Below the pieces are notes generated by a model that saw only the letters and a program-made list of their open reading frames with translations, ran no database searches and was not told the origin of the DNA. Below are positions 14,013 through 33,140 of a stretch of 64,000 bases of DNA, piece by piece. How positions within the stretch are numbered: the first letter of the stretch is position 1; each line of letters begins with the position of its first letter. The translations under genes and the position numbers were made by a program. The stretch comes from Candidatus Thorarchaeota archaeon (GTDB lineage: Archaea > Asgardarchaeota > Thorarchaeia > Thorarchaeales > Thorarchaeaceae): positions 46,896-110,895 of the forward strand of contig JBHLRP010000004.1 in NCBI GenBank assembly GCA_048882485.1, given 5' to 3'.

Positions 14013-14060
14013 GCCAGTCCGTTGAGGCCCCCAGTACAACTGCAGCTTGGGGACTTAAAG

Positions 14061-17000
14061 ATGGCCACAACATCATCAAAGAAGTCGACGCCTGCAACCA
14101 AGCCAACTGACGTCCTTGTCATTGGCGCCGGAATGGCTGGTATCAATGCAGCTCTTTCTCTAGCTGAAGGAGGACACCATGCGCATGTCATTGAGAAATC
14201 GGTGAACATTGGCGGCAACTATGTGGCAGTGTACAAGATATTCCCAATGTTAGAATGCAGTGCATGCGTAATGACCCCACTGACCTCCTATGTAGGCAAA
14301 CACCCCAACATCTCCGTTCATGCTCTTTCAACAGTTGAGAAAGTCACAGGCTCGCAGGGCAATTTCACAGTCACGGTGAGAAAGAAGGCACGCTATGTCA
14401 ATGAGGAAACCTGCACAGGATGTCAGAAGTGCATTGCAAACTGTCCTGTCGAGGTGCCATCAGAGTACGACCACGGTCTTTCTCTGCGAAAGGCCATCTA
14501 CATGAACTTCCCTCAGCAGGTCCCTCTCGTCGCAACGATTGACAGGGAGAATTGTATTGGTTGTGGAACTTGCGCAGCGGTTTGTCCACAGGACTGCATC
14601 AGCTACGATGATGAGGACAGGGTATTCGATATTAATGTGGGTTCGATTGTTGTTGCCACAGGATTTCAAGAATACAAGCCAGAAGACTATAGTGAGTATG
14701 GCTATGGTGTCTTTCCGAACGTTGTCACAAGTCTGGAATATGATCGGATGACCCATCCGACAGGGCCTACTGACGCACATATGATTCGGCCGTCTGACGG
14801 GAAAGAGCCTGAGAAGATTCTGTTCATCAACTGTGTGGGAAGCAGGGATGTCCGTGAGAACATCGGAGGATACAGTAAGCACTGCAACAAGGTCTGCTGT
14901 TCATTTGGCCTTAAACTAGCTCAAGTCACACGGATGCATTATCCAGAGGACCACTGTGAGATAATCTACACCTACATGGACATGCGGACTGCTGGAAAGG
15001 CCCTAGAGGAGTTCCTATGGGACTCAGAACGAAATCATGCCATCAACTTCGTCCGAGGTCGAGTTGCAGAAGTTTCTGAAGACCCAGACACTCGCGACCT
15101 CTATGTCAAAATGGAGGATACTGAGAAAGGGGAAATCATCGAGATTGACAAAATCTCAATGGTCGTACTTAATGCAAGCTTCAGACCAAATAATGGACAA
15201 GAGGAACTCGCAAAGATTCTGAAGATTGACATAGACGAGAATGGGTGGGTGAAGACTGCCCATGCGAACTCAGGCGGAGTAGAAACCACCAGAAAAGGAA
15301 TCTTTGTTGCTGGCTGTGCAACGGGACCGAAGGATGGTACTGATAGTGTGAATGAAGGTAAAGGCGCGGGCATGGCATCTCACTCTCTTCTGCCGATACC
15401 AACGCCTGCAATACCTGAAGAGATTCCTCCAGCTGAACTTGGTGATGAGCCCCGTGTAGGCGTATTCATCTGTCATTGTGGCGGTATCATTGGCAATGTC
15501 ATAGATTCACCCCGACTGGCTGACTGGGCAAAGGAAATGCCAAATGTGGCGTATGCGACCGATTATCTATTCATGTGTTCAGACCCGGGACAGGAGTTGA
15601 TTGTTGAAGCCATAAAAGAACACAAGTTGAACCGGATTGTGGTCGGATCATGTTCTCCGCTTCAACACCAGGAAACATTCAGAAGAGCCTTAATTGCCGC
15701 CGGTCTTTCACCCTATTACTTTGTTGGACCTGTTGGCCTTAGAGAACAGCTTTCTCTTGTAAATGCCAATGCACCTCTTGAGGAGCGTCAGGAAAAAGCT
15801 CAGGACATGATTCGTAGTGCAGTGGCTCAGGCAGTGAATTCTGAAGTGGTTCCTGTCAAGGAGGTTGAGGTTACCCGAGTAAGCATGGTAGTCGGAGGCG
15901 GAGTATCCGGAATGACTGCTGCACTGGACCTTGCTCGAAAAGGCTTTGATGTCATACTAGTGGAGAAACAAGACAAGCTTGGCGGTCGGTTAAACGACCT
16001 CCACCATCTCTTCCCTAAAATGGAATCGGCAAAAGAGATTGTTGACAGATTGGTTGCAGAGGTAGAGAATGAGAAACGGATTAAGATCATACTCAACTCC
16101 AAGGTTGTGAGCCGTGATGGCTCATATGGCAATTATGACATCGAGGTCGAGCATGTAGAATCAGGTGAGAAGAATAACTATCGAATTGGATCGATGGTGG
16201 TGGCAATTGGCACCGAAACCTATACTCCGAAGGATGGAGAGTATGGTTATGGCGAGGTCCCAGCTGTCATATCTACACTTGACCTTGAAAGAAAACTCAG
16301 AAATGGCGAACTCAAGAAAGCTCCAAAGAATCCTGTCTTCATTCACTGTGTGGGCTCCAGACAGAATCCAGGCGAAGGTTTCAGGCATTGCTCAAGAGTC
16401 TGCTGCTCAGCAATCGTCACCATGCAGCACGAGTTGAAGGAGCTGTTCCCTGAGATTAAGATCTTTTCAGCTTACAAGGAACATATTCGTCCGTACGCAA
16501 ATGGAATGGAAGAGATGTGGCGCGAAAACAGGCAGATGGGCGTATCCTATCTTCGTTGGGTCAGAGATAGACCAGTTACTGTTGAGAATGACCCAGGAAG
16601 CGGCGATGCTATTGTCACAATCTATGACACCTTGGCGCAGGAAACCTTCAAGATAAAGTCAGACATGGTCGTCCTCGCTCTAGGCCTTCATGCTCCAGAT
16701 GATGTTAATGAGCTGGCAAAGGCACTTGGGATAAATCGTGGAGCTGATGGATTCCTAGCAGAAATGCACATGAAATACCGTCCAGTAGAAACCACCGTGC
16801 CGGGAGTGTTTCTAGGTGTTACCTACGCTAAGAATGTTGCAGACTCGATAAACCAGGCCAGAGGTGCCGCAAGCGAAGCAGCAGTCCCGTTGAACCTAGG
16901 TACTGTGGGAATCGAGCTTGAAACTGCAGAGGTGGACCAAGACCTATGTGTGGGGTGTGACCTCTGTCACTATTCGGACATCTGCCCCTATGACGCAGTC

Positions 17001-17165
17001 TCAATGATTGAGATTGAGCCAGGAGTCAAGAAGAGTGTCACTGATGAGATGCGCTGTGAAGGTTGTGGTGCCTGTACTGCAATCTGTCCTACTGGAGCTC
17101 GCGACCTACGATGGTGGCGTGAGGGCAGCTTCATGGAACAGATTGAAGAGATGCTCAAGGAGTGA
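14061..17165 (+). CDS. hdrA: Heterodisulfide reductase subunit A-like protein with two FAD modules
   Basis: Two GxGxxG FAD motifs, KIFPMLECSAC, CVGSR...CNKVCC, RVGVFICHCGG, and inserted plus C-terminal 2x[4Fe-4S] ferredoxin motifs. Confidence 0.92.
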   Translation: MATTSSKKSTPATKPTDVLVIGAGMAGINAALSLAEGGHHAHVIEKSVNIGGNYVAVYKIFPMLECSACVMTPLTSYVGKHPNISVHALSTVEKVTGSQGNFTVTVRKKARYVNEETCTGCQKCIANCPVEVPSEYDHGLSLRKAIYMNFPQQVPLVATIDRENCIGCGTCAAVCPQDCISYDDEDRVFDINVGSIVVATGFQEYKPEDYSEYGYGVFPNVVTSLEYDRMTHPTGPTDAHMIRPSDGKEPEKILFINCVGSRDVRENIGGYSKHCNKVCCSFGLKLAQVTRMHYPEDHCEIIYTYMDMRTAGKALEEFLWDSERNHAINFVRGRVAEVSEDPDTRDLYVKMEDTEKGEIIEIDKISMVVLNASFRPNNGQEELAKILKIDIDENGWVKTAHANSGGVETTRKGIFVAGCATGPKDGTDSVNEGKGAGMASHSLLPIPTPAIPEEIPPAELGDEPRVGVFICHCGGIIGNVIDSPRLADWAKEMPNVAYATDYLFMCSDPGQELIVEAIKEHKLNRIVVGSCSPLQHQETFRRALIAAGLSPYYFVGPVGLREQLSLVNANAPLEERQEKAQDMIRSAVAQAVNSEVVPVKEVEVTRVSMVVGGGVSGMTAALDLARKGFDVILVEKQDKLGGRLNDLHHLFPKMESAKEIVDRLVAEVENEKRIKIILNSKVVSRDGSYGNYDIEVEHVESGEKNNYRIGSMVVAIGTETYTPKDGEYGYGEVPAVISTLDLERKLRNGELKKAPKNPVFIHCVGSRQNPGEGFRHCSRVCCSAIVTMQHELKELFPEIKIFSAYKEHIRPYANGMEEMWRENRQMGVSYLRWVRDRPVTVENDPGSGDAIVTIYDTLAQETFKIKSDMVVLALGLHAPDDVNELAKALGINRGADGFLAEMHMKYRPVETTVPGVFLGVTYAKNVADSINQARGAASEAAVPLNLGTVGIELETAEVDQDLCVGCDLCHYSDICPYDAVSMIEIEPGVKKSVTDEMRCEGCGACTAICPTGARDLRWWREGSFMEQIEEMLKE

Positions 17166-17737
17166 GCACCTTGGTGAATATTGACGGCCTTCGTGCAGGA
17201 TGGACCGTGTTGAATGACCTTCTGGGAGAGCTCAGAGCAAAGCATGTGTTCATCCCAGACCTCACCTATGCAGACCTGCGTAACTCAAAGATGGTGATAG
17301 AGTATCTCTCAAGTTTTGAAGGCGACCTCAGAAGCTCAGACCATGCAGATGAGAAACTCAGGGTCGAGATGGAAACAAAGATCATGAGCCTTCGTGAAAC
17401 CCTGATGGTGTGGGCTGAAGAGAGGGATGGCGTCGGATATAGACAGGTCTGGGAAGACAAATTTCAGCGTGCCTTGGATGGGAAAGCCGAGTATGTTGAG
17501 GAGGAGAAGACTCCAATCTCCGATATACCTAGGGAGAAGGATATAGGCTTCTTTAGAATCAGACTTCCAGATGAGATTCCAGTTGAAATCATATCAGAAT
17601 TGGCTGAAGACTGCGGAGTACTCATATCCCTAGACGGCGATAGACATCTGCAGGTTAGTGGAAAGAAAGACTGTGTCAGGGATGCGATGAAACGACTTGG
17701 TGAAATATTCTATGGAGATAGTAAGCTGAGGAAATAG
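17162..17737 (+). CDS. DUF2096-like protein
   Basis: N-terminal WTVLNDLLGELR and overall layout resemble archaeal DUF2096; GTGA overlap with hdrA. Confidence 0.7.
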   Translation: MSTLVNIDGLRAGWTVLNDLLGELRAKHVFIPDLTYADLRNSKMVIEYLSSFEGDLRSSDHADEKLRVEMETKIMSLRETLMVWAEERDGVGYRQVWEDKFQRALDGKAEYVEEEKTPISDIPREKDIGFFRIRLPDEIPVEIISELAEDCGVLISLDGDRHLQVSGKKDCVRDAMKRLGEIFYGDSKLRK

Positions 17738-17789
17738 CATCTCCTCAAATGTCACTCTTTATCTGTTCGCTCATCCTCGGATAATTTGT

Positions 17790-18695
17790 ATGGCCATTGA
17801 ACACTCGGATAGATTGGAGCGCGCGAAGCTCTCACTCATTGGATTATCAGTTGGAGATGCCTTTGGAGAGAGTTTCTTCGACTCTCACCCTCAATTGGTG
17901 AATCGGATAGCTGAACGCAGGATTCCGCCGGGTAGATGGCCATTTACTGATGATACGATGATGGCTTTATCGATAGTTTCTGTTCTGAAGGAATACAAGG
18001 AGATTAACCAAGACGCGCTAGCGGCAAGCTTTGCGAGAAACTTCGATCCAGTTCGGGGCTATGGCCTGGCAATGCATCATGCACTGCCGAGGATGGCTGC
18101 TGGAGAGAGATGGTCCTCCGTGGCATCCAACCTGTTTGGTGGAGAGGGCTCTTTCGGGAATGGAGCGTCAATGCGAGTGGCACCAGTGGGTGGATATTTC
18201 GCTGATGACATTCTTGAGGCAAGAAGGAATGCAGCCTTGTCCGCGGAGGTCACACATACACATCCTGAAGCTGCAGCAGGTGCTATAGCAGTTGGACTAG
18301 CTGCTGCTTGGGCTGCCAGAATGAGCAATACCGAAGTCCCAACACCTGGCGAATTCATTGAAAAAGTAGTGAAGGGAGTACCTGATAGTATGACTAGGAG
18401 AGGAATTCTGAAAGCACAGGAAGTTCCTCCTCTTGCTACCCCTTCTGATGCTGCCGCCATTCTGGGGTGTGGGCAACAGATTACGACTCAGGACACTGTC
18501 CCATTTGTCATTTGGTGCGCTGCACATTATTTGGAAGACTATGAAAATGCCCTCTGGAACACTGTAAGTGCGTTTGGGGATATGGATACGACATGTGCAA
18601 TGGTTGGTGGTATTGTAGTTCTGTATTCTGGAATAGAAGGCATACCTAAGCAATGGCTGGTACAGCGAGAAGCCCTTCCAGATCTGCCAATCTAG
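17790..18695 (+). CDS. ADP-ribosylglycohydrolase (DraG/ARH family)
   Basis: GDAFG, TDDT, GNGASMR and GDMDT motifs. Confidence 0.93.
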   Translation: MAIEHSDRLERAKLSLIGLSVGDAFGESFFDSHPQLVNRIAERRIPPGRWPFTDDTMMALSIVSVLKEYKEINQDALAASFARNFDPVRGYGLAMHHALPRMAAGERWSSVASNLFGGEGSFGNGASMRVAPVGGYFADDILEARRNAALSAEVTHTHPEAAAGAIAVGLAAAWAARMSNTEVPTPGEFIEKVVKGVPDSMTRRGILKAQEVPPLATPSDAAAILGCGQQITTQDTVPFVIWCAAHYLEDYENALWNTVSAFGDMDTTCAMVGGIVVLYSGIEGIPKQWLVQREALPDLPI

Positions 18696-19576
18696 ATGCC
18701 AAGAATGCCACTAATCGGGTCCAAAGAGATTCTATTCAGCTCAAGGCCCAGCTGTTCCTGATCAAGACCCATCGCTAGCCCGAGAATCTGAGTGACAAAC
18801 ATGGCTGGGAGTTCGAGCGACTCGCCATTATCATCCTTCACCCCAATCAACTGCACATCAAACTGTGTATGGCACGCTGGACAGTTGGTCACGAGAACAT
18901 TGGCTTGGCTTTCTTTCGCCGAGATCATCTTGTCCTTCAGAACATCTGTAGCTACTTCTTCACTTGCAATCAAAAGAGGGGAACCACAGCAGTTGATCTT
19001 TGCACCCCAAGGAACGCTTTGTGCACCAGTGAGTTCAAGGAGTTCGTCTACCTTTCTTGGGAGTTCTGGATCATCGAAACCTGCAACATTTGATGGACGA
19101 ATGAGATGACATCCGGGGTGAAATGCAATTCTGAGCCCAGTGAGGGGTTTCACAATCCTTGACTTGATATCATCTTTCATGTCATAGAGGACCTCTACAA
19201 AATGGCGTATCTTGGTCTTTCCTGTGTACTCGAGCCCCAGAGTCTTTAGGGCGCCATTGACTTTCTTTCGATAGGTTTCGTCATCATGCAATACATGGTC
19301 CGTGTCTTTTAGTGAACCAAAACATCCGTTGCAGGGAGTGACGATATCATGACCTCTGCTCTCTGCTAGAGCAATGTTCCTGCCCGACATAGAGAGCCAA
19401 CTAGTTTCATCAATTGACTTCAGGACAACCGTACCGCAGCAGGATGCGCCTTCGAAGTCAATGAGTTTCACACCGAGTTCCTTGGCTACTGCACGCATCG
19501 AGGCCTCATAGTTGTTGAAGCGGTTGGGGATTGCGCACCCTAGGAATACTTCGTAGGTCTGGGCCATCTCACTCAC
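18692..19576 (-). CDS. hdrB: Heterodisulfide reductase subunit B (CCG domains)
   Basis: FLGC, SCCG, CNGC, HPGCH, CCGS and CPAC motifs. Confidence 0.92.
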   Translation of the reverse strand: MSEMAQTYEVFLGCAIPNRFNNYEASMRAVAKELGVKLIDFEGASCCGTVVLKSIDETSWLSMSGRNIALAESRGHDIVTPCNGCFGSLKDTDHVLHDDETYRKKVNGALKTLGLEYTGKTKIRHFVEVLYDMKDDIKSRIVKPLTGLRIAFHPGCHLIRPSNVAGFDDPELPRKVDELLELTGAQSVPWGAKINCCGSPLLIASEEVATDVLKDKMISAKESQANVLVTNCPACHTQFDVQLIGVKDDNGESLELPAMFVTQILGLAMGLDQEQLGLELNRISLDPISGILGI

Positions 19577-20087
19577 TCTCCTCCAACTTCATTAGACCCA
19601 TTTTGTCCAAGACTTTACGTGTGTCCTCGACATTCAGCTCTGGCACGTCATCGAGCTCTAGGTCCTCACGTTCCCATTCAGTAGGTTCGTACAGTTTGCC
19701 AGTGTCATAGAGTGACTTTCTTGCAGCGACATAGCCAGGTGGTGCCATTTTCTTCTTGAATGCCATGTTCTTTAGGCCAAAGATGATGTCAGTGATGTCT
19801 ATGCCTTGAGGGCATCGCTCCTGACAGGTATAACAGGTCGTGCACAACCATACCATGTCGGTTTCTAGGACTTCTTTTAGTCCAAAGAGAAGCATCCGCA
19901 TCAACTCGTGCACTTGGATGTTCACCTTGTCACTCACTGGACAGCCAGCACTGCACTTGGCGCACTGGAAGCATGCGGTGAGGTCTTTTCCACCAAGCAG
20001 TCCGGAGACCTCCTTTGTAAACTCCGCATCTAGAGCCTCGAACTTCTTTCCCTCAAAAGACTTGAACTGGCCCCACGACTCTGTCAT
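19569..20087 (-). CDS. hdrC: Heterodisulfide reductase subunit C
   Basis: CFQCAKCSAGCP and WLCTTCYTCQERCP. Confidence 0.92.
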   Translation of the reverse strand: MTESWGQFKSFEGKKFEALDAEFTKEVSGLLGGKDLTACFQCAKCSAGCPVSDKVNIQVHELMRMLLFGLKEVLETDMVWLCTTCYTCQERCPQGIDITDIIFGLKNMAFKKKMAPPGYVAARKSLYDTGKLYEPTEWEREDLELDDVPELNVEDTRKVLDKMGLMKLEESE

Positions 20088-20090
20088 ATC

Positions 20091-23000
20091 TTATCGCCTC
20101 CTAGGTCTGAGCGGGCTTGGGCCCAGTTTATCAGCGACTTCAGTCAGCTTCTTCACAGTTTCCGCCCAGATTGGGCCTTCGCTGGCACTTATTTGGGTGA
20201 ACTGGAGCCTCTCAGGCTCGAGACCTGCTTTCTCAAGAATCTTCCTTGCAATGGCAAACCTTCGCTCAAAGGACACGTTCCCATCGACATAGTGACAGTC
20301 CCCGAAGTGGCAGCCCGAAACCCACACCATGTCAGCTCCCATTCTGAAAGCCTCCAGCATGTGAGTCACGCTGACTCGGCCTGTGCACATCACCCGGATG
20401 TCACGGACCGTGGTCGGCTGTTGGAACCTTGAAACACCTGCACTGTCAGCACCTGCATACGAACACCAATTACAGAGGATCGTCACTATCCTCGACTCAG
20501 TGGCTGGCATGTCCTCCAAAGATGAACGAATCTGAGCCAGTATCTGGTCGTCAGTGAAGTGCTTCATTGTGATGGCTCCGGCGGGGCATCCGGCAGCGCA
20601 TTTACCGCATCCAGCACAGAGAACCGGATTGGAAACTGCATAATCAGAGCCGCCGTCACCAGGCACGACCTCAATTGCATTGTAAGCACAGTTTATCTCA
20701 CACGTACCGCAACCAACGCAGACTTCAGGGTCAACAACAGAAACGATAGCTTCAGCCTTCCGGATGCCGCTGGCTAGAGGTATTAGTGCTCTTGATGCAG
20801 CACCTCGACCTTGAGCTACGGATTCAGCAATTGTCTTTGGAGCAGTAGCAGTCCCAGCGACATAAACACCATCTGTCTGGAAATCTACTGGTCTGAGCTT
20901 TGGATGCGCCTCCATGAAGAACCCAGACATATTGAGTGGGACCTTGAATAGCTCAGAGATCTCCTTGTTCTTCTCCCGTGGAATCATAGCAGTTGAGAGA
21001 ACAACATGGTCAACATCAAATGCCACCTCAGCACCGAAGACTTGGTCCATGACCTCTACACGTAGCGCCTTGTCCTTGCCTTTCTTCACGCTGGGTGGAC
21101 TAGCCTGATCAAACCTGAGAAATACAACTCCCTTCTCTCGAGCCTCTCTGTATTTGTCCTCGTCCTCATAGGACACCCTGATGTCACGATAGAGATGGAA
21201 GACTCTCGAGTTGGGATACTTATCAAGCAGTTCTAGTGTGTGCTCTAGGGCGATTTTACAGCATATTCCTGAACACCAGGTCCGGCCACCTTCGAGGGAC
21301 TCCTCTTCGCGAGAACCTGCACAATGAATGACCGCAAAGGTCTGACCGTCCTCGATTCCTTCACCGTCTGCTGTCTTGTGATTGAACTCGACCTCCGTGA
21401 TAACATTGTCCAGCTTCTTCAGGCCGTAAAGACCCTTTTCAGTGAGTTCAGTGGCACCTGTGGCAACAATGACAACTCCGACCTTGACCTCTTGCTTCTC
21501 CTTTCCTGTCTTTATAGTGATATCAAAATCACCAATTGAGCCCTTAGCATCAGTCACTTCGGAGTTCATCATCAACTGGATGTTCGGATTGCCTGTGACG
21601 GCCGCCTCGAACTCCTTCACTATCTCTGCGCTTGGTCTGTGATCAAAATTGACTGTTCGGAGCTCATTCAGAAAGCCTCCGACCTTGTCCTCCTTCTCGA
21701 CAAGAACCACCTTGAATCCCTTCTGAGCGATAAGGTCGGCTGCAGCCATTCCAGATACTCCGGCACCAATGACCAGGACAGTTGGTTCAATCTGGGTGAC
21801 TGCTTCTTCCTGAGCCTCCAGAAGTCTTGCTCGTGCCACGGACATTCGTACAAGGTCGTTTGCCTTGGATGTTGCCTCATCCTTTGCAGCCTGATGCACC
21901 CATGAACAGTGTTCTCTGATGTTTGCGAGCTCAAACAGATACTTGTTGAGGCCAGCTTCTTCGATTGTGGCACGGAACAGAGGCTCATGCGTTCGGGGCG
22001 TGCAAGAGGCGACAACCAAGCGGTTCAGGTTATGTTCCTTGATAGCTTCCTTGATTACATCTTGAGCGTCTGATGAACATGAGTAGAGAAGGTTCTCTGA
22101 ATAGACTACACCGGGGAGAGTACTTGCGTACTCTGTGACTTCTGCAACATCAACAGTTCCAGCGATGTTGATTCCACACGAGCAAATGATCACGCCAATC
22201 CGCGGCTCTGCAGCTATGAGTTCGAAGTCTGCTTCAGTAAGGGCTTCGCTCTCTGACGCTTCAGGCAAGACAATATCCATTGCAGCCATTGCCGCTGCTG
22301 CGCTCCCCTGAGCTACAGAGTCAGGGATATCCTTGGGGAAATTGCATGCTCCACACATGTGCACACCAGGAACGCCTGTCTGAACCGAATCGACTCCATC
22401 TCCCTTGCCTTTGATGAACCCATACTGATCTAGTTCAATCCCCAGCTTCTCCATTAATTCTGAATTCTTGTTTGGCACCATAGCAGGGCAAAGGACCACA
22501 AGGTCGTAACTGTCCTTCAAGATCTCGTGTCCCTTTGCATCACTGTGACGGACGATTAGGTTCTGGGTTTCAGGCTCCTCAGTGATGTAGCTGGGCAGGC
22601 CCTTGACATAGTTTATCCCATACTCTGTTTCTCCTCTAACCACAAACTCTTCGAAACCCTTTCCAAAAGCTCTCATGTCATTGTATAGGATGTCAATATG
22701 TACCTCAGGAGTATGCTCTTTGGTGATGATCGCTTCTTTGGTAGCATACGTACAACATATTCTCGAACAATATGCGCAGTGGTTTGCATCTCGGCTACCG
22801 ACGCATTGAATAAACGCAATATGATGAGGCTCCTTTCCGTCGGAGGGGCGCATAACAATCCCTTTTGTGGGACCACTGGCTGAGACCATTCGTTCATACT
22901 CAAGTGCGGTCACAACATTTGGAAATCGACCATACCCATACTCCGGGACTGAGGATGCATCAAGTAGGTCATACCCCGTGGCAACAATTATCGACCCTGC

Positions 23001-23549
23001 ATTGATATTCACAATCTCATCAGGAATCTCAAAATCAATGGCCTCTGCCTTGCAGGTCTTAACGCAGGTCATGCACTCAATACAGTTCTCCATATCAATA
23101 GTAGCAATGTTAGGTACGGCTTGAGGAAACGGAATATAGGCCGCCTTTCTCATCTTCAGACCCATGTCATACTCGTTTCTCACTTCGATAGGACAGACAC
23201 GCTCGCAGTCACCGCACCCAGTGCACTTGTCCAAGTCCACCCTTCTTGTGTGCTTCATAACCTTGACCATGAAATTACCAGGCTCTCCAGAAACATCAGT
23301 GACTTCCGAATATGCTAGTAGCTCAATATTGCGATGACGAGAACAATCAACCATCCATGGACCTTGAATGCACATTGAACAGTCAAGTGTGGGGAATGTC
23401 TTGTCCAGTTGGGACATATGACCTCCAATTGAGGGATTCTTCTCGACCATATAGACTTGGACGCCCATTTCAGCGAGGTCAAGTGCAGCTCGCATTCCTG
23501 CAATACCCGCGCCGATGATGACAACTGGCTTTGTAGCAGACTCGGCCAT
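20091..23549 (-). CDS. hdrA: HdrA (two FAD modules) fused to MvhD
   Basis: DKTFPTLDCSMC, two FAD motifs, IGVIICSCG, ferredoxin motifs; C-terminal MvhD [2Fe-2S] motifs CNWCSYAGAD, RVMCTGR and GCHFGDCHY. Confidence 0.95.
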   Translation of the reverse strand: MAESATKPVVIIGAGIAGMRAALDLAEMGVQVYMVEKNPSIGGHMSQLDKTFPTLDCSMCIQGPWMVDCSRHRNIELLAYSEVTDVSGEPGNFMVKVMKHTRRVDLDKCTGCGDCERVCPIEVRNEYDMGLKMRKAAYIPFPQAVPNIATIDMENCIECMTCVKTCKAEAIDFEIPDEIVNINAGSIIVATGYDLLDASSVPEYGYGRFPNVVTALEYERMVSASGPTKGIVMRPSDGKEPHHIAFIQCVGSRDANHCAYCSRICCTYATKEAIITKEHTPEVHIDILYNDMRAFGKGFEEFVVRGETEYGINYVKGLPSYITEEPETQNLIVRHSDAKGHEILKDSYDLVVLCPAMVPNKNSELMEKLGIELDQYGFIKGKGDGVDSVQTGVPGVHMCGACNFPKDIPDSVAQGSAAAAMAAMDIVLPEASESEALTEADFELIAAEPRIGVIICSCGINIAGTVDVAEVTEYASTLPGVVYSENLLYSCSSDAQDVIKEAIKEHNLNRLVVASCTPRTHEPLFRATIEEAGLNKYLFELANIREHCSWVHQAAKDEATSKANDLVRMSVARARLLEAQEEAVTQIEPTVLVIGAGVSGMAAADLIAQKGFKVVLVEKEDKVGGFLNELRTVNFDHRPSAEIVKEFEAAVTGNPNIQLMMNSEVTDAKGSIGDFDITIKTGKEKQEVKVGVVIVATGATELTEKGLYGLKKLDNVITEVEFNHKTADGEGIEDGQTFAVIHCAGSREEESLEGGRTWCSGICCKIALEHTLELLDKYPNSRVFHLYRDIRVSYEDEDKYREAREKGVVFLRFDQASPPSVKKGKDKALRVEVMDQVFGAEVAFDVDHVVLSTAMIPREKNKEISELFKVPLNMSGFFMEAHPKLRPVDFQTDGVYVAGTATAPKTIAESVAQGRGAASRALIPLASGIRKAEAIVSVVDPEVCVGCGTCEINCAYNAIEVVPGDGGSDYAVSNPVLCAGCGKCAAGCPAGAITMKHFTDDQILAQIRSSLEDMPATESRIVTILCNWCSYAGADSAGVSRFQQPTTVRDIRVMCTGRVSVTHMLEAFRMGADMVWVSGCHFGDCHYVDGNVSFERRFAIARKILEKAGLEPERLQFTQISASEGPIWAETVKKLTEVADKLGPSPLRPRRR

Positions 23550-23650
23550 TCGTTAGTCCACTCCGACGTAACAATGCGCATCGGTTCAATGGCATGATAA
23601 AATGTTTGTTATCGGACGATGAAATCAGACCCATAGGTTTCGAGCCCAGG

Positions 23651-23875
23651 CTATTCGAGTAGTCCTATGATTTGTGGACTCTTTGGAATGAGGGCTCTCT
23701 GAATCCTGATGGCACGCACTGGGCATTGAAACTCACAAGAGGTGCAATCAATGCATCTTTTCGCATTTACAAGCTCAGCCTTCCTTTTACTCTGGCTGAA
23801 CCCCCAGACTCCTCTTGGGCACACCTTCAAGCAGTCTTGGCAACCGGAACAGGCCTCATAGTCATAAATTATCAT
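23651..23875 (-). CDS. 2x[4Fe-4S] ferredoxin (HgcB-like position)
   Basis: CSGCQDCLKVCP and CIDCTSCEFQCP; ATG 23875 behind a GAGGTGA SD, 10 nt after the HgcA-like stop. Confidence 0.88.
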   Translation of the reverse strand: MIIYDYEACSGCQDCLKVCPRGVWGFSQSKRKAELVNAKRCIDCTSCEFQCPVRAIRIQRALIPKSPQIIGLLE

Positions 23876-23885
23876 GTCATTCACC

Positions 23886-24881
23886 TCAAATGATGCCCGA
23901 AGGATAGTAGAATCCCAGGACAAAGATAACAATCAACGACCCAATACCCGCGATTATATCACGGATCATCTGGTCCTCTCCTAACTGAGGAGTAGAGCCT
24001 CCCCAATTGAATCCCACAAACAACGACAGTCCGATTATCGCGAGACCACTTGTATCTAGCCATGCCCATTCGGTGAGTACAGCCAGGTATGTGTCTGAGA
24101 GAAACGCGACGATTAGCCAAATGATTTTCCATACGAATAGCGCGATTACTCCAGTTATCGCACCCCTCATATAACCCGAGGAAGTTGGCATCTTTGAATC
24201 GACCATGGCCATAAACGTGCCCAGAGTCCATGCTCCACAAATGATTAGCAAGAGGTTTGCCATCCAGAAGCTGGACCATGACCGGAAGACTCCACCCATT
24301 AGCCCGAGTGCCCAGAAGATTGGTGTCATCATCAGGAACATTGTGGTTTCAAAGAAGAGATGGGCAAGATTGCATTCCATTCGCCTGTAGAAGCCGAACT
24401 TTACAATGCTCTGGTCGAGGGTCTTCTTGTTTCCATTTTTGATGAACCTGCCTACGTCCTCAATCTCTACGGGTCCGAAGACAGCGTTCCATCCATTGTC
24501 TGATAATACAGCCTTTGAGATTGAGCTCGCAGCAAGTTGAGGGAGTATTAGATTCCTGTGAGAAACTACGCTCTCCAATTTGGTTGAGCTGATTGCGGTT
24601 AGTACAGAGTCAGTGTTTACATGGCCGCCTCTGCTGCCACACCAGACATTGATTCCATGACCATCAACAACCAGAAGATGACAGCTCAAGTGCTGTTTTT
24701 CAATCTCCTCAGTCACTTTGAACACAGTCATGTAATAGTCTGTTGTGACAATCACTGGTGATTCATGATCCGCTCCATTGAATGAGAACAAACCTTGGGC
24801 TGACTTGATGGCCAATGCGGGCCACATCCATTGCGAGCCTAACAGACATGCAAAGTACTTCCAGCCTTTCTTCATAGTCAT
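23886..24881 (-). CDS. HgcA-like membrane-anchored corrinoid protein (CdhD/HgcA family)
   Basis: SPVIVTTDY, LLVVDGHGINVWCGSRGG (cap helix), LILPQLAA and FGPV, followed by about 5 TM helices. Confidence 0.85.
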   Translation of the reverse strand: MTMKKGWKYFACLLGSQWMWPALAIKSAQGLFSFNGADHESPVIVTTDYYMTVFKVTEEIEKQHLSCHLLVVDGHGINVWCGSRGGHVNTDSVLTAISSTKLESVVSHRNLILPQLAASSISKAVLSDNGWNAVFGPVEIEDVGRFIKNGNKKTLDQSIVKFGFYRRMECNLAHLFFETTMFLMMTPIFWALGLMGGVFRSWSSFWMANLLLIICGAWTLGTFMAMVDSKMPTSSGYMRGAITGVIALFVWKIIWLIVAFLSDTYLAVLTEWAWLDTSGLAIIGLSLFVGFNWGGSTPQLGEDQMIRDIIAGIGSLIVIFVLGFYYPSGII

Positions 24882-25528
24882 GCCTCCGCTACAAATAACT
24901 CATAGAGACCTCCCATTAGAGTCACTCTATACCTGGGGCTCAGGCCAGCAGATCTCATTGAAGCAGGAATATTGTGATGAGTGTGTGACACAACATTACT
25001 CAATCGAGAAACTAGTCTGAAGCTCAATCTTCGAATCAGCCCAAAGAAAGGTGCAATGAGTCTACTCTGTGGAATACCCTCTCCGCCAACTACCACTTGC
25101 CCGCCTCGGACAACTACTCTCGCTGCTTCGTTCAGGAAAGCCTTCAGTTGTTTCGGCTGTAGCTCGCTCACCATTAGGGTGCTCACAACCACGTCAAAGA
25201 CACCATCATCGAAATCAAGCGCAGTGGCATCTCCATATCTGACATCTATGCGTCTTGTCAGGTTGTGCTTCTTGACATGCTCTTCAGCAATTTGAAGCAT
25301 TTCCTTATTGGTGTCTACTCCAATCCCACGGATGCCTCGCCTTCCAGCTTCGATTAGGAGTTTCCCAGTGCCACAACCAATGTCAAGCAATTTACCTTTC
25401 CTTGGTAAGAGATTATCAACGATATAGTTCCGGAGGGCGCTGTCCTGTTTGAATGTGAGAAGAGATATCCACCTATCATACTGAGTTGCTGCTCTATCCT
25501 CTGATAGCTTCATCAGGATGGTTGCCAT
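24878..25528 (-). CDS. Class I SAM-dependent methyltransferase (corrinoid-protein-associated)
   Basis: Motif I LLDIGCGTG, GDATALDFDDGVFDVVVS; ATGA overlap with the HgcA-like gene. Confidence 0.9.
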   Translation of the reverse strand: MATILMKLSEDRAATQYDRWISLLTFKQDSALRNYIVDNLLPRKGKLLDIGCGTGKLLIEAGRRGIRGIGVDTNKEMLQIAEEHVKKHNLTRRIDVRYGDATALDFDDGVFDVVVSTLMVSELQPKQLKAFLNEAARVVVRGGQVVVGGEGIPQSRLIAPFFGLIRRLSFRLVSRLSNVVSHTHHNIPASMRSAGLSPRYRVTLMGGLYELFVAEA

Positions 25529-25594: not shown

Positions 25595-25969
25595 TCAGCC
25601 TTTGATAATCATGGGTGTGACAAACGTCCAGAAACCTACACCGAGCAGGACTATGTAGTTCAGGTCTCCCAGACTAATGGCCAATATTCTGATGCTTGCT
25701 AAAATGATGTAAAGCATTGATGTCACAAATGCAACAACAAGTTGGGGCCGAAGGTCAACCTTCTAATCTCGAATCTCAAAATGCCAAAACAGTACAATGG
25801 CAGCAATAAGGACCATCACGACTGCTGCGACTTGAAAGGGAACGTTCAGTGTGGCAAATGGGGTCAAAAGTCCCTCTACGGTTGTCATGAGCGCAATAAT
25901 GTAGATTGGCGTCAGTTTGCCAAGCCTGTGAAGATAACTATCATCTGCATCAATATTTGTCAATCTCAT
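25595..25969 (-). pseudogene. Small 4-TM membrane protein gene with one in-frame TAG (pseudogene or readthrough)
   Basis: AGGAGG SD + ATG 25969; TAG at 25763-25765; the frame stays open for 55 more, mostly hydrophobic codons (KVDLRPQLVVAFVTSMLYIILASIRILAISLGDLNYIVLLGVGFWTFVTPMIIKG) to TGA at 25595. Confidence 0.7.
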
Positions 25970-28899: not shown

Positions 28900-29847
28900 T
28901 TATTCAGAGGCTGCCGCATCTTGAGACGTTTCAATCTCAATACCAAGATTCTGCCAATTTGGCTGGTTCTTTCTTTGCAGATACTGCAAGTGGGTAGTAA
29001 GACCAAACTCATCAGGCTCATGTCCAAACGCCAGAGCGAGTAGCTCCATGACATGCATGAGATCGAAATGATACTCCGCCTCAAAGTGTTTCTGAATTTC
29101 AACCTGTCCAAGGTCCAGTTGTAGTTCACAGAATGGACACGGAGTAACAATGATGTCAGCTCCTCCCGCGGCTAAGAGACTTTCAAACTTCTGTCTTGTA
29201 AAGTCAAGGGCGGTCTTGACATCTGCTGTTCTAACTGCTCCTCCAGCGCCACAGCAAATTAGCTCATCTTTGTATGGCACATATGTTGCACCGGATGCCT
29301 CACAGAGTTCTCGGAATATATGAGGCCGCTCTGAATCATCTTTCTTCTTGATCAGCTTGGGCCGCATCCAATGACATCCGGGATGAAGAGCCATTCGTAC
29401 ACCTTCGAGTGGGCGTGTAACACGTTTTCGAATCTTGTCCAGCCCTGCCGTATTGTAGAGCGCATCAACATAATGAGTGACCTCTATTGTACCTTTGAAC
29501 TCGCGCCCAATCTCAGCGAGATTCTCATTAACCGCAGTTCTAAGCTCTTCGTCATGTTTGAGCTCATGGTCAGCATCCCAAAGACTCGCAAAGCACCCAT
29601 TGCATCCAGTAGTGATATTCGTGCCTGCCTCTTCAGCTATTGTAAGGTTTCGTGCTGCTATTGATGCCCAGGTCACTTTATCAAATGATCCAAAGACTCC
29701 GGGGGCCGGACAACAGGTAGCTTTCTCCATAGGTAGAAGATCCATGTCAAGGTCTTCGAACACAAGCTCAGCAGCTTTCTGTACGCTAGGATATCTATGG
29801 GGAATTATGCAGCCTAGGAAATGTAAGAACTTTGGTCTCTTTGCCAT
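28900..29847 (-). CDS. hdrB: Heterodisulfide reductase subunit B (CCPAPG type)
   Basis: FLGC, TCCPAPG, GCNGC, HPGCH, CCGAGG and CPFC. Confidence 0.93.
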   Translation of the reverse strand: MAKRPKFLHFLGCIIPHRYPSVQKAAELVFEDLDMDLLPMEKATCCPAPGVFGSFDKVTWASIAARNLTIAEEAGTNITTGCNGCFASLWDADHELKHDEELRTAVNENLAEIGREFKGTIEVTHYVDALYNTAGLDKIRKRVTRPLEGVRMALHPGCHWMRPKLIKKKDDSERPHIFRELCEASGATYVPYKDELICCGAGGAVRTADVKTALDFTRQKFESLLAAGGADIIVTPCPFCELQLDLGQVEIQKHFEAEYHFDLMHVMELLALAFGHEPDEFGLTTHLQYLQRKNQPNWQNLGIEIETSQDAAASE

Positions 29848-29853
29848 ATTGTT

Positions 29854-30405
29854 TTACTCCTCCTTCTCTTCCTTCTCAGCAACAAGCTTGTCGAAACCAC
29901 TCTTCTTTGCGATCTTGACAACTTCCTCAATGGCTTCAGGGTAACTGCTTGCGTTTGGTGGCTTCTCATCAAGGCCAACCTTCTTTCTTAGGCCTTCCCA
30001 AGTTTCACCACCCAGAGGAACTGCATGTCCCGTGTTGAGCACATTCATCCCCACCTTTCGATGGGGCTCAAGCATATATCCCTCAGCGACTGCGACATTT
30101 CGGATAGCCTTGATGACCTCTGTTGGCTGAACGTCCTGAGGGCATCGATCAGTACAGGTATAGCATGTCGTGCAGTACCATAGCTCCATGCTAGAGATCA
30201 CTTCTTCCTTTAGACCAAGTAGGGCCTTTCTGATGATACCTCGCACCAGGTAGTTTGTGCGAGCCCCTGCAGGACAACTCCCGCTACATGTACCACACTG
30301 ATAGCAGCTCTGAATGTTAGGACCGCCTATTCTCTTGATCATGTCAACAAATTCTGTGTCGACCTCATCAATCATATGGATGCCCGGCTGGTCTGCACTA
30401 GTCAT
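29854..30405 (-). CDS. hdrC: Heterodisulfide reductase subunit C
   Basis: CYQCGTCSGSCP, WYCTTCYTCTDRCP, TGHAVP. Confidence 0.93.
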   Translation of the reverse strand: MTSADQPGIHMIDEVDTEFVDMIKRIGGPNIQSCYQCGTCSGSCPAGARTNYLVRGIIRKALLGLKEEVISSMELWYCTTCYTCTDRCPQDVQPTEVIKAIRNVAVAEGYMLEPHRKVGMNVLNTGHAVPLGGETWEGLRKKVGLDEKPPNASSYPEAIEEVVKIAKKSGFDKLVAEKEEKEE

Positions 30406-30514
30406 AGTGATGCACCGACTACCCGCGGTGCTTAGATTCCGGCCTTAAATCCATTGTCAAAAGGACGTTTCGCGAGAAGCAAAGACTCATTCCCTTTTGC
30501 GTCCATCATGAGCC

Positions 30515-31597
30515 ATGCTCTGTCCAAATCATGAGTATGAAGGCAGAATCGCATCCAAATCAATAGGACACTGTTCAATCTGCTTGGGTACTGATGATAG
30601 TGCTATTCATGCTGCCAAGGACAAGCACAAACAGCTCAGATTCAATCAAAACTTGGTTCCCAAAATACCTGAAAGCGGGAACATAGTATGTCCTGACTGC
30701 GGAAACCATTGCAGACTCATTGAGGGGGAGATTGGTTACTGCAACCTCCGTGTCGTAGAGCATGGAGCGGTCACTCATCGATTTCAAGGAAAGGCGATAG
30801 TTTCATGGTATTTTGACCCACTTCCAACCAATTGCGTGGCTGATTGGGTGTGTCCGGTCACAAAGGGCGATCCAACTTTTACGTACGCCAGACGATTCAA
30901 CAATCTTGCAGTATTCTATGGGTCATGCAATTCTGATTGCCTATTCTGCCAGAATGACAGTTTCAGAGAGATGATGGCTAAGGGAGAACCCTTGATGACG
31001 CCTAGAGAATTGGCTGCAGTAGCAAACGACAGGACTGCTTGTGTTTGCTATTTCGGTGGCGATCCAGCGTGCAATCCGGTTCATTCCTTGGAAACCTCAA
31101 AGATAATCTATGAGGAACGCCAGGCCCGAGTATGCTATGAAACCAACGGTAACATGTCACGTAAGTGGCTCGCTCGGACTGCTGAAATAGTCATGAAATC
31201 AGGGGGAACTTTCAAGTTCGACCTTAAGGCAGTGTCTCCTCGATTGTACACATCGCTCACAAGCATGACCAATACAACCGTTCTCAACAATTTCAGATTC
31301 CTCGCAAAGAAGGGATTGGAACGTGATGGAGAGTTTCTTGTAGCCAGCATTTTGCTGGTTCCTGGATATGTGGGTGTAAGTGAGGTAAGGAAGCTGTGCG
31401 AATTCATAATGAAATGCGATTCAACGATTCCAACTGCGCTTCTTGGTTTCCATCCACATCACGCCATGTCTGATCTCCCCCGAACAAGCAGGGCTCATGC
31501 GAAGGCTGCAATAGATACAGCTGAAGATGTTGGGCTGGCAAATGTGAGAATAGGAAACATGGGTCTACTCTCGACAAATGAATACTCGTTCGACTAA
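30515..31597 (+). CDS. Radical SAM protein, PFL-activating-enzyme-like
   Basis: CNSDCLFC radical SAM motif, FGGDP, ETNG, DLKA; extra N-terminal Cys clusters. Confidence 0.9.
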   Translation: MLCPNHEYEGRIASKSIGHCSICLGTDDSAIHAAKDKHKQLRFNQNLVPKIPESGNIVCPDCGNHCRLIEGEIGYCNLRVVEHGAVTHRFQGKAIVSWYFDPLPTNCVADWVCPVTKGDPTFTYARRFNNLAVFYGSCNSDCLFCQNDSFREMMAKGEPLMTPRELAAVANDRTACVCYFGGDPACNPVHSLETSKIIYEERQARVCYETNGNMSRKWLARTAEIVMKSGGTFKFDLKAVSPRLYTSLTSMTNTTVLNNFRFLAKKGLERDGEFLVASILLVPGYVGVSEVRKLCEFIMKCDSTIPTALLGFHPHHAMSDLPRTSRAHAKAAIDTAEDVGLANVRIGNMGLLSTNEYSFD

Positions 31598-31687
31598 TGC
31601 TTTCCAAAAATCTAGACGCAAAACCAATCCTTATATCTCCAAATACTCGGCGTCCTAACGGAATCCAGATTTGCGAAGGTAACCCTA

Positions 31688-32236
31688 ATGGAGAAAAGCT
31701 TCTCGGGCGAACGAATCGAGTCTGAAGACATCGACCCGCAATTCACTGAGAAAATCATTGAGGCAGGGGCTGACAGAATTCGGACTTGTATTCAGTGCGG
31801 AACATGTTCCAGTGTTTGCCCGAGTGGACGTCGGACTGCCTTCAGGACACGTGAACTGATGAGAAAGGCGGTTCTTGGTCTCAAGGATGAAGTTCTAGCC
31901 AGTCCAGATCTTTGGCTCTGTGCGACTTGTTACACATGTCTTGAGAGATGCCCTAGAGAAATCAGGGTGACGGATGCAATAATCATCATGAGGAACATGG
32001 CTGTTGAAGAGGGGTTCATGCTTCCTCAACACAGGAAAGCCTCACAGAAGCTCATCTCAACTGGCCATGCTGTTCCAATCGATGAAGAAAATCGCGAATT
32101 GCGAAAAGACCTCGGTCTAGAGGAATTGCCACCCACTACGCACTCAAAGAAGAAGGCTCTAAAAGATGTTCAGAAGATATTGAGGAAGACTGGATTCAAG
32201 AGCCTCATTGATAGGCAGACCAAGGAGGGAGAATGA
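31688..32236 (+). CDS. hdrC: Heterodisulfide reductase subunit C
   Basis: CIQCGTCSSVCP, WLCATCYTCLERCP, TGHAVP. Confidence 0.93.
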   Translation: MEKSFSGERIESEDIDPQFTEKIIEAGADRIRTCIQCGTCSSVCPSGRRTAFRTRELMRKAVLGLKDEVLASPDLWLCATCYTCLERCPREIRVTDAIIIMRNMAVEEGFMLPQHRKASQKLISTGHAVPIDEENRELRKDLGLEELPPTTHSKKKALKDVQKILRKTGFKSLIDRQTKEGE

Positions 32237-32237
32237 T

Positions 32238-33140
32238 GTGACAGAAACAGAGGGTCAGAAGTACTCGCTCTTCCTTGGTTGCGTCATGCCAAATCGATTC
32301 CCTAATCTGGAGAAGAGCATCAGAGTCGTGCTCCCCCTGCTTGGAGTTGAACTCGAGGATTTGGAAGGGGCTAGTTGCTGTCCTGCACCGGGGGTAGTTC
32401 GATCATTCGATGAACCTACATGGCTTGCTCTCGCGGCCCGGAACCTCGCCCTTGCGGAAATGGCTGGAAACGATATAATCACAGGATGCAATGGTTGCTA
32501 TGGGACGTTCAAGGAGGCACTCTCAGAGGTTCACGACCATCCTGAGAGACTGAAACAGGTGCAAGACGTCTTTGATGGAATGAATATCACTTTCAATGCA
32601 GAGGTCGATGCAAAGCACGTCATAGAGGTCATTTCCAATATGGGCGCTGAACGAATCAGGGAGCTTGTTACACATCCACTAGAGGGGATTAGGATCGCAG
32701 TTCACTATGGGTGTCATCTCCTTAAACCAAGCAAGAACAAGCCTTGGAGAAAGACTCAGAACCATACATTTCTTGATGAATTGGTTGAAGCGACGGGTGC
32801 AGAGAGCGTAAGATACAAGGACAAGTCGCTTTGCTGTGGCGCGGGAGGAGGCATGAGGGGAGGCAATGTGGCAATCAGCGTTGATATTGCCAAAGAGAAG
32901 CTAGACAATATGTTGGCAGCCGGAGTTGACTGTGTTCTCAATGTCTGTTCATTTTGTCATCTCCAGTATGAGCTGGCTCAACCTCAGCTGAACAAGGAGA
33001 TCGGAGAGGAAAGATATCAGATACCGGTGATTTACTACACACAGCTCCTAGGCCTGGCTCTTGGTCTGGACCCAAGCGAATTGGGGCTTGACAAGCATGT
33101 TGTTAGCACAAAGCCATTATTGAACAAGATATTCAGATGA
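32238..33140 (+). CDS. hdrB: Heterodisulfide reductase subunit B (CCPAPG type)
   Basis: FLGC, SCCPAPG, GCNGC, HYGCH, CCGAGG and CSFC; GTG 32238 directly after the hdrC stop. Confidence 0.93.
   Translation: MTETEGQKYSLFLGCVMPNRFPNLEKSIRVVLPLLGVELEDLEGASCCPAPGVVRSFDEPTWLALAARNLALAEMAGNDIITGCNGCYGTFKEALSEVHDHPERLKQVQDVFDGMNITFNAEVDAKHVIEVISNMGAERIRELVTHPLEGIRIAVHYGCHLLKPSKNKPWRKTQNHTFLDELVEATGAESVRYKDKSLCCGAGGGMRGGNVAISVDIAKEKLDNMLAAGVDCVLNVCSFCHLQYELAQPQLNKEIGEERYQIPVIYYTQLLGLALGLDPSELGLDKHVVSTKPLLNKIFR

Follow-up and report, generated by a model that had tools for sequence, protein, structure and literature searches.

An unfused CpaM/HgcAB-like gene trio in Thorarchaeota and its relationship to the mercury-methylating HgcAB proteins

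A 64,000-nucleotide stretch of contig JBHLRP010000004.1 from a Candidatus Thorarchaeota archaeon (assembly GCA_048882485.1; the whole stretch is here called the window) carries adjoining genes for a SAM-dependent methyltransferase, a corrinoid membrane protein resembling HgcA, and a small ferredoxin. The initial annotation, made from the letters of the sequence, had proposed an undescribed system in which the methyltransferase loads the corrinoid, the ferredoxin re-reduces cobalt and the methyl group is passed to something other than mercury. The locus therefore raises the question of whether these genes are a form of hgcAB, a relative of it or a system of another kind, and which acceptor they might serve.

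The three-gene unit and its surroundings

All three genes lie on the minus strand, in the order methyltransferase, corrinoid protein, ferredoxin. The first (24878..25528) encodes a CpaM-type class I SAM methyltransferase of 216 aa with NF043040 as its best NCBIfam match, the second (23886..24881) an HgcA-like corrinoid membrane protein of 331 aa (329 if translation starts at Met3) with a PF03599 domain, and the third (23651..23875) a 2[4Fe-4S] ferredoxin of 74 aa with Fer4 matches. The coupling described in the initial annotation was seen as reported: the ATG of the corrinoid gene overlaps the TGA of the methyltransferase gene as ATGA, and the ATG of the ferredoxin gene, at 23875, lies 10 nt past the stop of the corrinoid gene. 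Synteny, which had been proposed as a check, is kept, with the full trio present in 13 other genomes of the host genus. An ortholog of the corrinoid gene was found in 15 of the 16 other congeneric genomes, and the two loci among these 15 that do not show the full trio end at a contig edge. A crude estimate of dN/dS gave about 0.04-0.14 for each of the three genes, and most of the homologs that carry a name (60-99% identity) are from Thorarchaeota, as is the host MAG. Purifying selection together with conservation of the trio rules out a pseudogene or chance open reading frames, and confirms that the three-gene unit is real, conserved and intact. Upstream of the methyltransferase gene there is a 124-codon gene for a small membrane protein (25595-25969, minus strand), which is found only in part of the genus; its codon 69 (25763-25765) is an in-frame TAG, whereas eight relatives encode Gln there. 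Recoding of this TAG was considered and rejected, given the CAG/Gln of the relatives and the fact that TAG is the commonest stop of the host genome; it is a nonsense change or a sequence error.

On the downstream side an hdrA2-mvhD fusion, followed by hdrC and hdrB (18692..23549, minus strand; NF040770 over its cut-off, with HdrC and HdrB matches), starts 102 nt from the trio on the same strand, an arrangement found throughout the genus. More widely, hdr genes were near the trio in eight of 14 Thorarchaeota loci, many of which are closely related, and in none of the seven loci of the Hodarchaeales-type sister clade described below. Hdr is a plausible source of low-potential electrons for the trio. 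An obligate link was rejected, given its absence from the Hodarchaeales-type and several Thorarchaeota loci and the conserved upstream element that hdrA has of its own. This element, a BRE/TATA-like sequence with an imperfect GATAA-N8-TTATC palindrome (23590..23612, minus strand), was recognized by its conservation between the ferredoxin gene and hdrA: it is nearly invariant in 10 genomes, and the DNA just past the ferredoxin stop varies in length. Because a nearly invariant TATA-like element sits in the gap, it is probably the promoter of hdrA itself and a candidate regulator site, and would hence mark the boundary of the trio. The hdr genes of the window form a larger hub (14022-23549 and 28900-33140) with two double-module HdrA proteins, one of them MvhD-fused, and three hdrC/hdrB pairs. 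An AmmeMemoRadiSam-like radical SAM gene (30515-31597) is also part of this hub, and near CpaM in another Asgard family there is a homolog of it (loci L086, L087, L091, and L092).

Relationship of the three proteins to HgcAB and CFeSP

Within the corrinoid protein PF03599 covers residues 24-143 (E 2e-17). The AF2 model (pLDDT 93.7) shows a domain like that of CFeSP, to which it aligns with an rmsd of 1.3-1.6 A across about 125 columns, and five long C-terminal helices (164-193, 198-230, 236-261, 277-296, and 302-325), four of which were called by a crude hydropathy scan. This bears out the HgcA layout of a corrinoid domain and about five transmembrane segments that had been read from the sequence. 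The best structural matches in Foldseek were the HgcAB model 9a0b (top) and CFeSP; an ESM Atlas search matched only CdhD-family look-alikes. The cysteine annotated as the predicted cobalt ligand is present as Cys81, which aligns with Cys93 of HgcA and with the Thr of the CFeSP cap helix; together with G76, N78, and W80 it is invariant across 121 homologs. By analogy Cys81 is a putative Co ligand, and modelled fold and motif are compatible with the binding of a cobamide. The cap helix itself, GINVWCGSRGG, had been singled out as non-canonical. The reading is correct, but what is peculiar to Thorarchaeota shrinks to G82, S83, and R84, since the HgcA Lys has been lost throughout the CpaM-linked paralogs, where Gly replaces it in 97-100% of every group, as it does in the window's protein (NVWCGSRG). 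It should be noted that the 39 HgcA-type rows in which the Lys is 100% conserved were selected by the cap-helix motif itself.

The best NCBIfam match of the corrinoid protein was NF043039, the HgcAB-like fusion protein, at 174 bits for a cut-off of 285; fused controls reached 457-458 bits on this model, as against 174 and 55 bits for the separate corrinoid and ferredoxin genes of the window. On the HgcA model NF040863 (cut-off 275) the protein scored 144 bits and true HgcA controls 434-508 bits. The score on CdhE/AcsC (NF003195) was 87 of 306 bits, confined to the corrinoid domain, and the host genome's own CdhE is found on contig C28; a CdhE fragment was ruled out. The CFeSP large subunit of the Wood-Ljungdahl pathway shares the corrinoid-binding fold at the rmsd given above, but it has Thr in place of Cys81, lacks a membrane domain and takes its methyl group from CH3-H4F/H4MPT. 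The traits that define it, a soluble protein of about 450 aa with an N-terminal Fe-S domain and a Thr cap helix, are not those of the window's protein.

A tree of 44 corrinoid sequences (IQ-TREE, LG+G4 without a mixture model, rooted on CdhE) recovered HgcA as monophyletic (100/100) with the window's protein outside, and forcing the Thorarchaeota proteins together with HgcA was rejected (AU p=0.014). The scoring and phylogeny that had been proposed as checks therefore agree with the earlier reading of the trio as an unfused paralog of HgcAB, and place the corrinoid protein apart from HgcA itself. The Thorarchaeota proteins with the WCGSRG motif form a clade (100/100) which is joined at 99/97 by an unfused clade (99/94) of another Asgard family, characterized by the motif WCSAAG and with one member named Hodarchaeales. 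Most loci of this Hodarchaeales-like clade have the three-gene layout, with an occasional gene or gap between the methyltransferase and corrinoid genes. Grouping of the Thorarchaeota alone with the fused clade was likewise rejected (AU p=0.03), which speaks against the view that a fused gene was simply split in the host lineage. The deeper placements compatible with the AU test were Thorarchaeota plus Hodarchaeales-like proteins as sister to HgcA (p=0.077), the same two together with the fused clade (p=0.24), and HgcA as sister to all paralogs (p=0.37). The methyltransferase tree recovers the groups of the corrinoid tree with weaker support.

The ferredoxin has two CxxCxxCxxxCP motifs, the second of which reads CIDCTSC, and no cysteines beyond the eight cluster ligands. 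HgcB (NF040864) was its best NCBIfam match with 57 bits for a cut-off of 99, and it also matches the C-terminal part of NF043039. The earlier observation that CIDCTSC stands in place of C(M/I)ECGAC and that the C-terminal cysteines of HgcB are missing was confirmed, and can be extended in that the C(M/I)ECGA motif, Cys73 (which aligns with Pro64) and the C-terminal Cys are all absent. In HgcB, Cys73 is essential to mercury methylation and the tail pair Cys94/95 nearly so (PMC7305189). Because the residues with which HgcB handles mercury are all missing, mercury is, as far as residues can tell, an unlikely acceptor, in agreement with the original proposal.

The methyltransferase scored 145 bits on the CpaM model (cut-off 180), which is below the cut-off but twice the 72 bits of the next NCBIfam family, and falls into a distinct 130-155 bit band common to the split and the MT-fused clades. 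All ten CpaM-invariant residues are present (M6, E10, Y17, G51, G53, G55, D72, S121, E122, and E150). By these residues and by its adjacency to an HgcA-like corrinoid gene the protein is a member of the CpaM family. Identity with ArsM was ruled out: the score was 38 of 263 bits, and the catalytic Cys of ArsM after beta-4 aligns with Leu118, the single Cys of the methyltransferase being located in motif I. The solved structures nearest to the CpaM model were AtmM, RebM, GPP methyltransferase, Coq5 (TM 0.78), and PE N-methyltransferase, i.e., enzymes acting on small-molecule or lipophilic substrates, and this resemblance of the model suggests that CpaM may have a substrate pocket of its own.

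Distribution of the CpaM-corrinoid partnership

The partnership between methyltransferase and corrinoid protein was addressed by a scan of GTDB genomes for CpaM, with a query assembled from corrinoid-linked methyltransferases; loci were retrieved by the methyltransferase and nothing else. This yielded 80 loci, distributed over Chloroflexota, Myxococcota, Gemmatimonadota, Acidobacteriota, Bacteroidota, Thermococcaceae, Methanohalophilus, Asgard archaea, and others, and in 76 of them an HgcA-like corrinoid gene is located directly downstream. Of the other four, three end at a contig edge, and in one the next ORF downstream is transposase-like. This makes CpaM and the corrinoid gene near-obligate partners, and the dedicated methyltransferase posited for the trio is supported by this adjacency, by the congruent trees and by a second paralog in the host genome (contig C128), in which CpaM and the corrinoid domain are fused into a protein of 571 aa with a WCAARG motif. 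The host has only these two CpaM-like genes, both tied to corrinoid genes. The ferredoxin of the C128 paralog keeps GCGC, ends in a Cys pair and is closer to HgcB than the ferredoxin of the window.

Across the loci the modules occur as MT + COR-Fd, MT-COR + Fd, MT-COR-Fd, or as the split trio, and the ferredoxin module is always present and usually fused. CpaM was above its cut-off in 66 of 301 Asgard genomes, and true HgcA in one of 201 (L214, G060:C110; 436 bits, in a MAG with 9% contamination). The WCGSRG motif occurs in 22 of the 86 genomes of the host family, in four of its 16 genera. At the one true hgcAB locus checked (L208) there was no CpaM. A long-branch corrinoid-ferredoxin fusion of 478 aa (P0074, locus L210), with the motif WCSTLSG and an N-terminal extension, likewise has no CpaM upstream. 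Clustering of 122 loci found no further gene common across clades; the commonest was a regulator of the TetR family, which accompanies cpaM at about 12 bacterial loci (including L103, L142, L147, L150, L154, L183, and L184), several of which have RND/LolA-like genes, so named by sequence appearance, nearby. Asgard MT-COR fusions at L101, L102, and L095 adjoin acr3, DUF166, and arsR, and those at L102 and L095 also arsM-like genes, the ArsM of L102 being above its cut-off.

The term "undescribed system" has to be given up in the light of these families. NCBIfam already names both partners, CpaM (NF043040, corrinoid protein-associated methyltransferase) and the HgcAB-like fusion protein (NF043039), and fused HgcAB was described by Podar 2015 (PMC4646819); Lin 2023 (PMC10083202) reported it from both Thorarchaeota and Lokiarchaeota. 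Among the papers listed in our literature search none discusses the methyltransferase partner or uses the term "corrinoid protein-associated" or the NF numbers, and none assays CpaM or the HgcAB-like protein. The trio is an unfused Asgard branch of this catalogued sister system of HgcAB, to which it belongs by its partner gene, its residues and its position in the trees, although it scores under the cut-offs and lacks the defining fusion of NF043039; what is new is the unfused variant in Thorarchaeota and the Hodarchaeales-like clade, which falls below every NCBIfam cut-off.

With CpaM plus NF043039 (the fused HgcAB of Podar 2015, Gilmour 2018, and Lin 2023) the trio shares three translationally coupled modules in identical order, the invariant GxNxWC with Gly at the HgcA Lys position, a ferredoxin lacking the Cys tail and the full set of CpaM-invariant residues. 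It differs in its separate ferredoxin gene, its sub-cut-off scores, Arg84 in the cap helix, its position in a clade of its own and the hdrA-mvhD genes downstream in the genus. HgcA and HgcB of Pseudodesulfovibrio mercurii ND132 (NF040863/NF040864) have in common with it the CFeSP-like corrinoid domain, a Cys-on-type cap helix, the five-helix membrane domain and a separate 2[4Fe-4S] ferredoxin gene downstream, but identity is 22-26%, the cap helix is WCAAGKG and not WCGSRGG, the HgcB cysteine features are missing from the trio, and the trio has CpaM coupled upstream. The Asgard WCAARG fusions are built of like modules and have Arg at the residue-84 position; unlike the trio they have the methyltransferase fused to the corrinoid domain (37% identity over that domain), a ferredoxin which keeps GCGC and a Cys-rich tail, and some members within ars clusters. 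By analogy the trio may work like HgcAB, yet it stands outside the HgcA and HgcB families.

Proposed chemistry and its alternatives

In HgcAB, SAM is the methyl donor, the clusters of HgcB generate Co(I) and a Cys-on methyl-Co species is the intermediate; methylation of Co(I) by SAM is irreversible (KD 33 uM), and the methyl group departs as a radical or carbanion (PMC11588087). Our preferred reading, to which we assign a probability of about 0.5, is that the trio is an unfused CpaM/HgcAB-like reductive methyltransferase of the polarity-reversing kind, passing methyl groups from SAM to cobalt by way of CpaM and from there to a soft electrophile other than mercury. By analogy with HgcAB, the 2[4Fe-4S] ferredoxin would reduce the membrane-anchored cobamide to Co(I); SAM-bound CpaM would methylate it with release of SAH; the resulting methyl-Co(III) would be ligated by Cys81; and the methyl group would then be transferred as a radical or carbanion to an electrophile at the membrane, with two electrons spent per turnover. 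SAM can methylate nucleophiles directly, and therefore a corrinoid relay with a constant ferredoxin would pay only where polarity is reversed for an electrophile. The constant, usually fused ferredoxin fits such a stoichiometric use of electrons. On the same reasoning the thiols and lipids that had been suggested as acceptors are a poor fit, as these nucleophiles could be methylated by SAM without a relay. Because the ferredoxin lacks a Cys tail and arsenic genes are not found nearby in the clade, the favored acceptor would be an electrophile of sulfur (disulfide or sulfane sulfur) or an organic one rather than a thiolate-bound metalloid. Against this reading stand the absence of CpaM from P0074, the missing cobS and neighborhoods which name no acceptor. 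It should be noted that cobS was not found in a host genome that is 90.5% complete; since this genome nevertheless has 14 B12-binding domains, reliance on cobamide salvage is suggested.

Purified HgcAB methylates its own cobalamin from SAM without a separate methyltransferase (PMC11588087), and for this reason we only infer that CpaM loads the cobalt. The same observation is the starting point of the one serious alternative, although we consider it less probable than the preferred reading: the pathway would have two steps, CpaM methylating a small or lipophilic substrate of its own, while the corrinoid protein and ferredoxin either self-methylate from SAM or act as a Co(I) reductase, for dehalogenation or for reduction of the methylated product. 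Dechlorination of CCl4 and trihalomethanes by HgcAB has been reported (bioRxiv 10.64898/2026.04.26.720869, preprint), the CpaM fold resembles that of Coq5, PmtA-type, and RebM enzymes, and the TetR regulators near 12 bacterial loci are typical of small-molecule handling. The tight and often fused partnership and the congruent trees, however, fit direct hand-over just as well, and there is no conserved transporter or pathway gene beside the pair.

If the relay of the preferred reading is retained and only its acceptor changed to As(III), Sb, Se, or Te, the trio would be a metalloid methylase or detoxifier, which we regard as doubtful. A link between hgcAB and arsenic resistance has been examined (bioRxiv 10.1101/2022.10.17.512643), and the ars neighborhoods of some MT-COR (WCAARG) paralogs in Asgard genomes speak for this reading. 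That clade, however, keeps the HgcB-like GCGC and Cys-rich tail which the window's ferredoxin lacks. None of 21 split-clade loci had acr3, arsM, or arsC within about 6-8 kb, with an ArsR-family gene at one edge-truncated locus; the arsM and acr3 of the host are on other contigs (C13 and C15), and the methyltransferase is without the catalytic Cys of ArsM. Judging from these gene neighborhoods and residues, arsenic is a less likely acceptor in the split clade.

Reductive methylation with SAM rescues oxidised Co(II) in methionine synthase, and the host genome has many B12-binding proteins. A comparable reactivation, in which the ferredoxin and SAM/CpaM would rescue Co(II) and the corrinoid protein would shuttle methyl groups between other, unlinked methyltransferases, is nevertheless very unlikely: there is no recurrent methyltransferase I/II partner near the system, and in HgcAB SAM is the catalytic donor and not a mere activator (PMC11588087). 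Least probable of all is a divergent but real mercury methylase, for which the unfused gene order, Cys81, the five helices and the AU-compatible grouping of Thorarchaeota and Hodarchaeales-like proteins with HgcA can be cited, against the low HgcA score, the position outside the HgcA clade, the missing cap-helix Lys, Cys73, and C-terminal Cys, and the fact that two cultured carriers of fused paralogs made no methylmercury (PMC4646819, PMC5893877), a finding which, as Podar pointed out, does not prove the enzyme incapable (PMC4646819).

To return to the preferred reading, a bolder version of it would make the CpaM-coupled system ancestral, HgcAB being an offshoot which lost CpaM and gained the mercury-handling cysteines, and would have the Thorarchaeota trio methylate disulfide or sulfane sulfur with electrons from HdrA-MvhD; we offer this as speculation to which we give little weight. 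On the ancestry the tree is neutral, HgcA as sister to all paralogs being compatible with the AU test (p=0.37). tRNA-Sec was also detected in the host genome.

The trio bears on the question of which native role HgcAB has; the CpaM-bearing sister system is far commoner than HgcAB in Asgard archaea and is present in many bacterial phyla as well. The trio provides a natural control, in effect HgcAB minus its mercury-handling cysteines, and its split form is convenient experimentally, since methylation of cobalt by CpaM can be probed by adding or omitting each module. Mercury surveys should take note that an hgcA-like gene with a separate ferredoxin gene behind it can resemble hgcAB, and ought not to be scored as a methylator. 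If the trio does methylate sulfur, Asgard archaea would have a hitherto unknown way of making methylated sulfur compounds.
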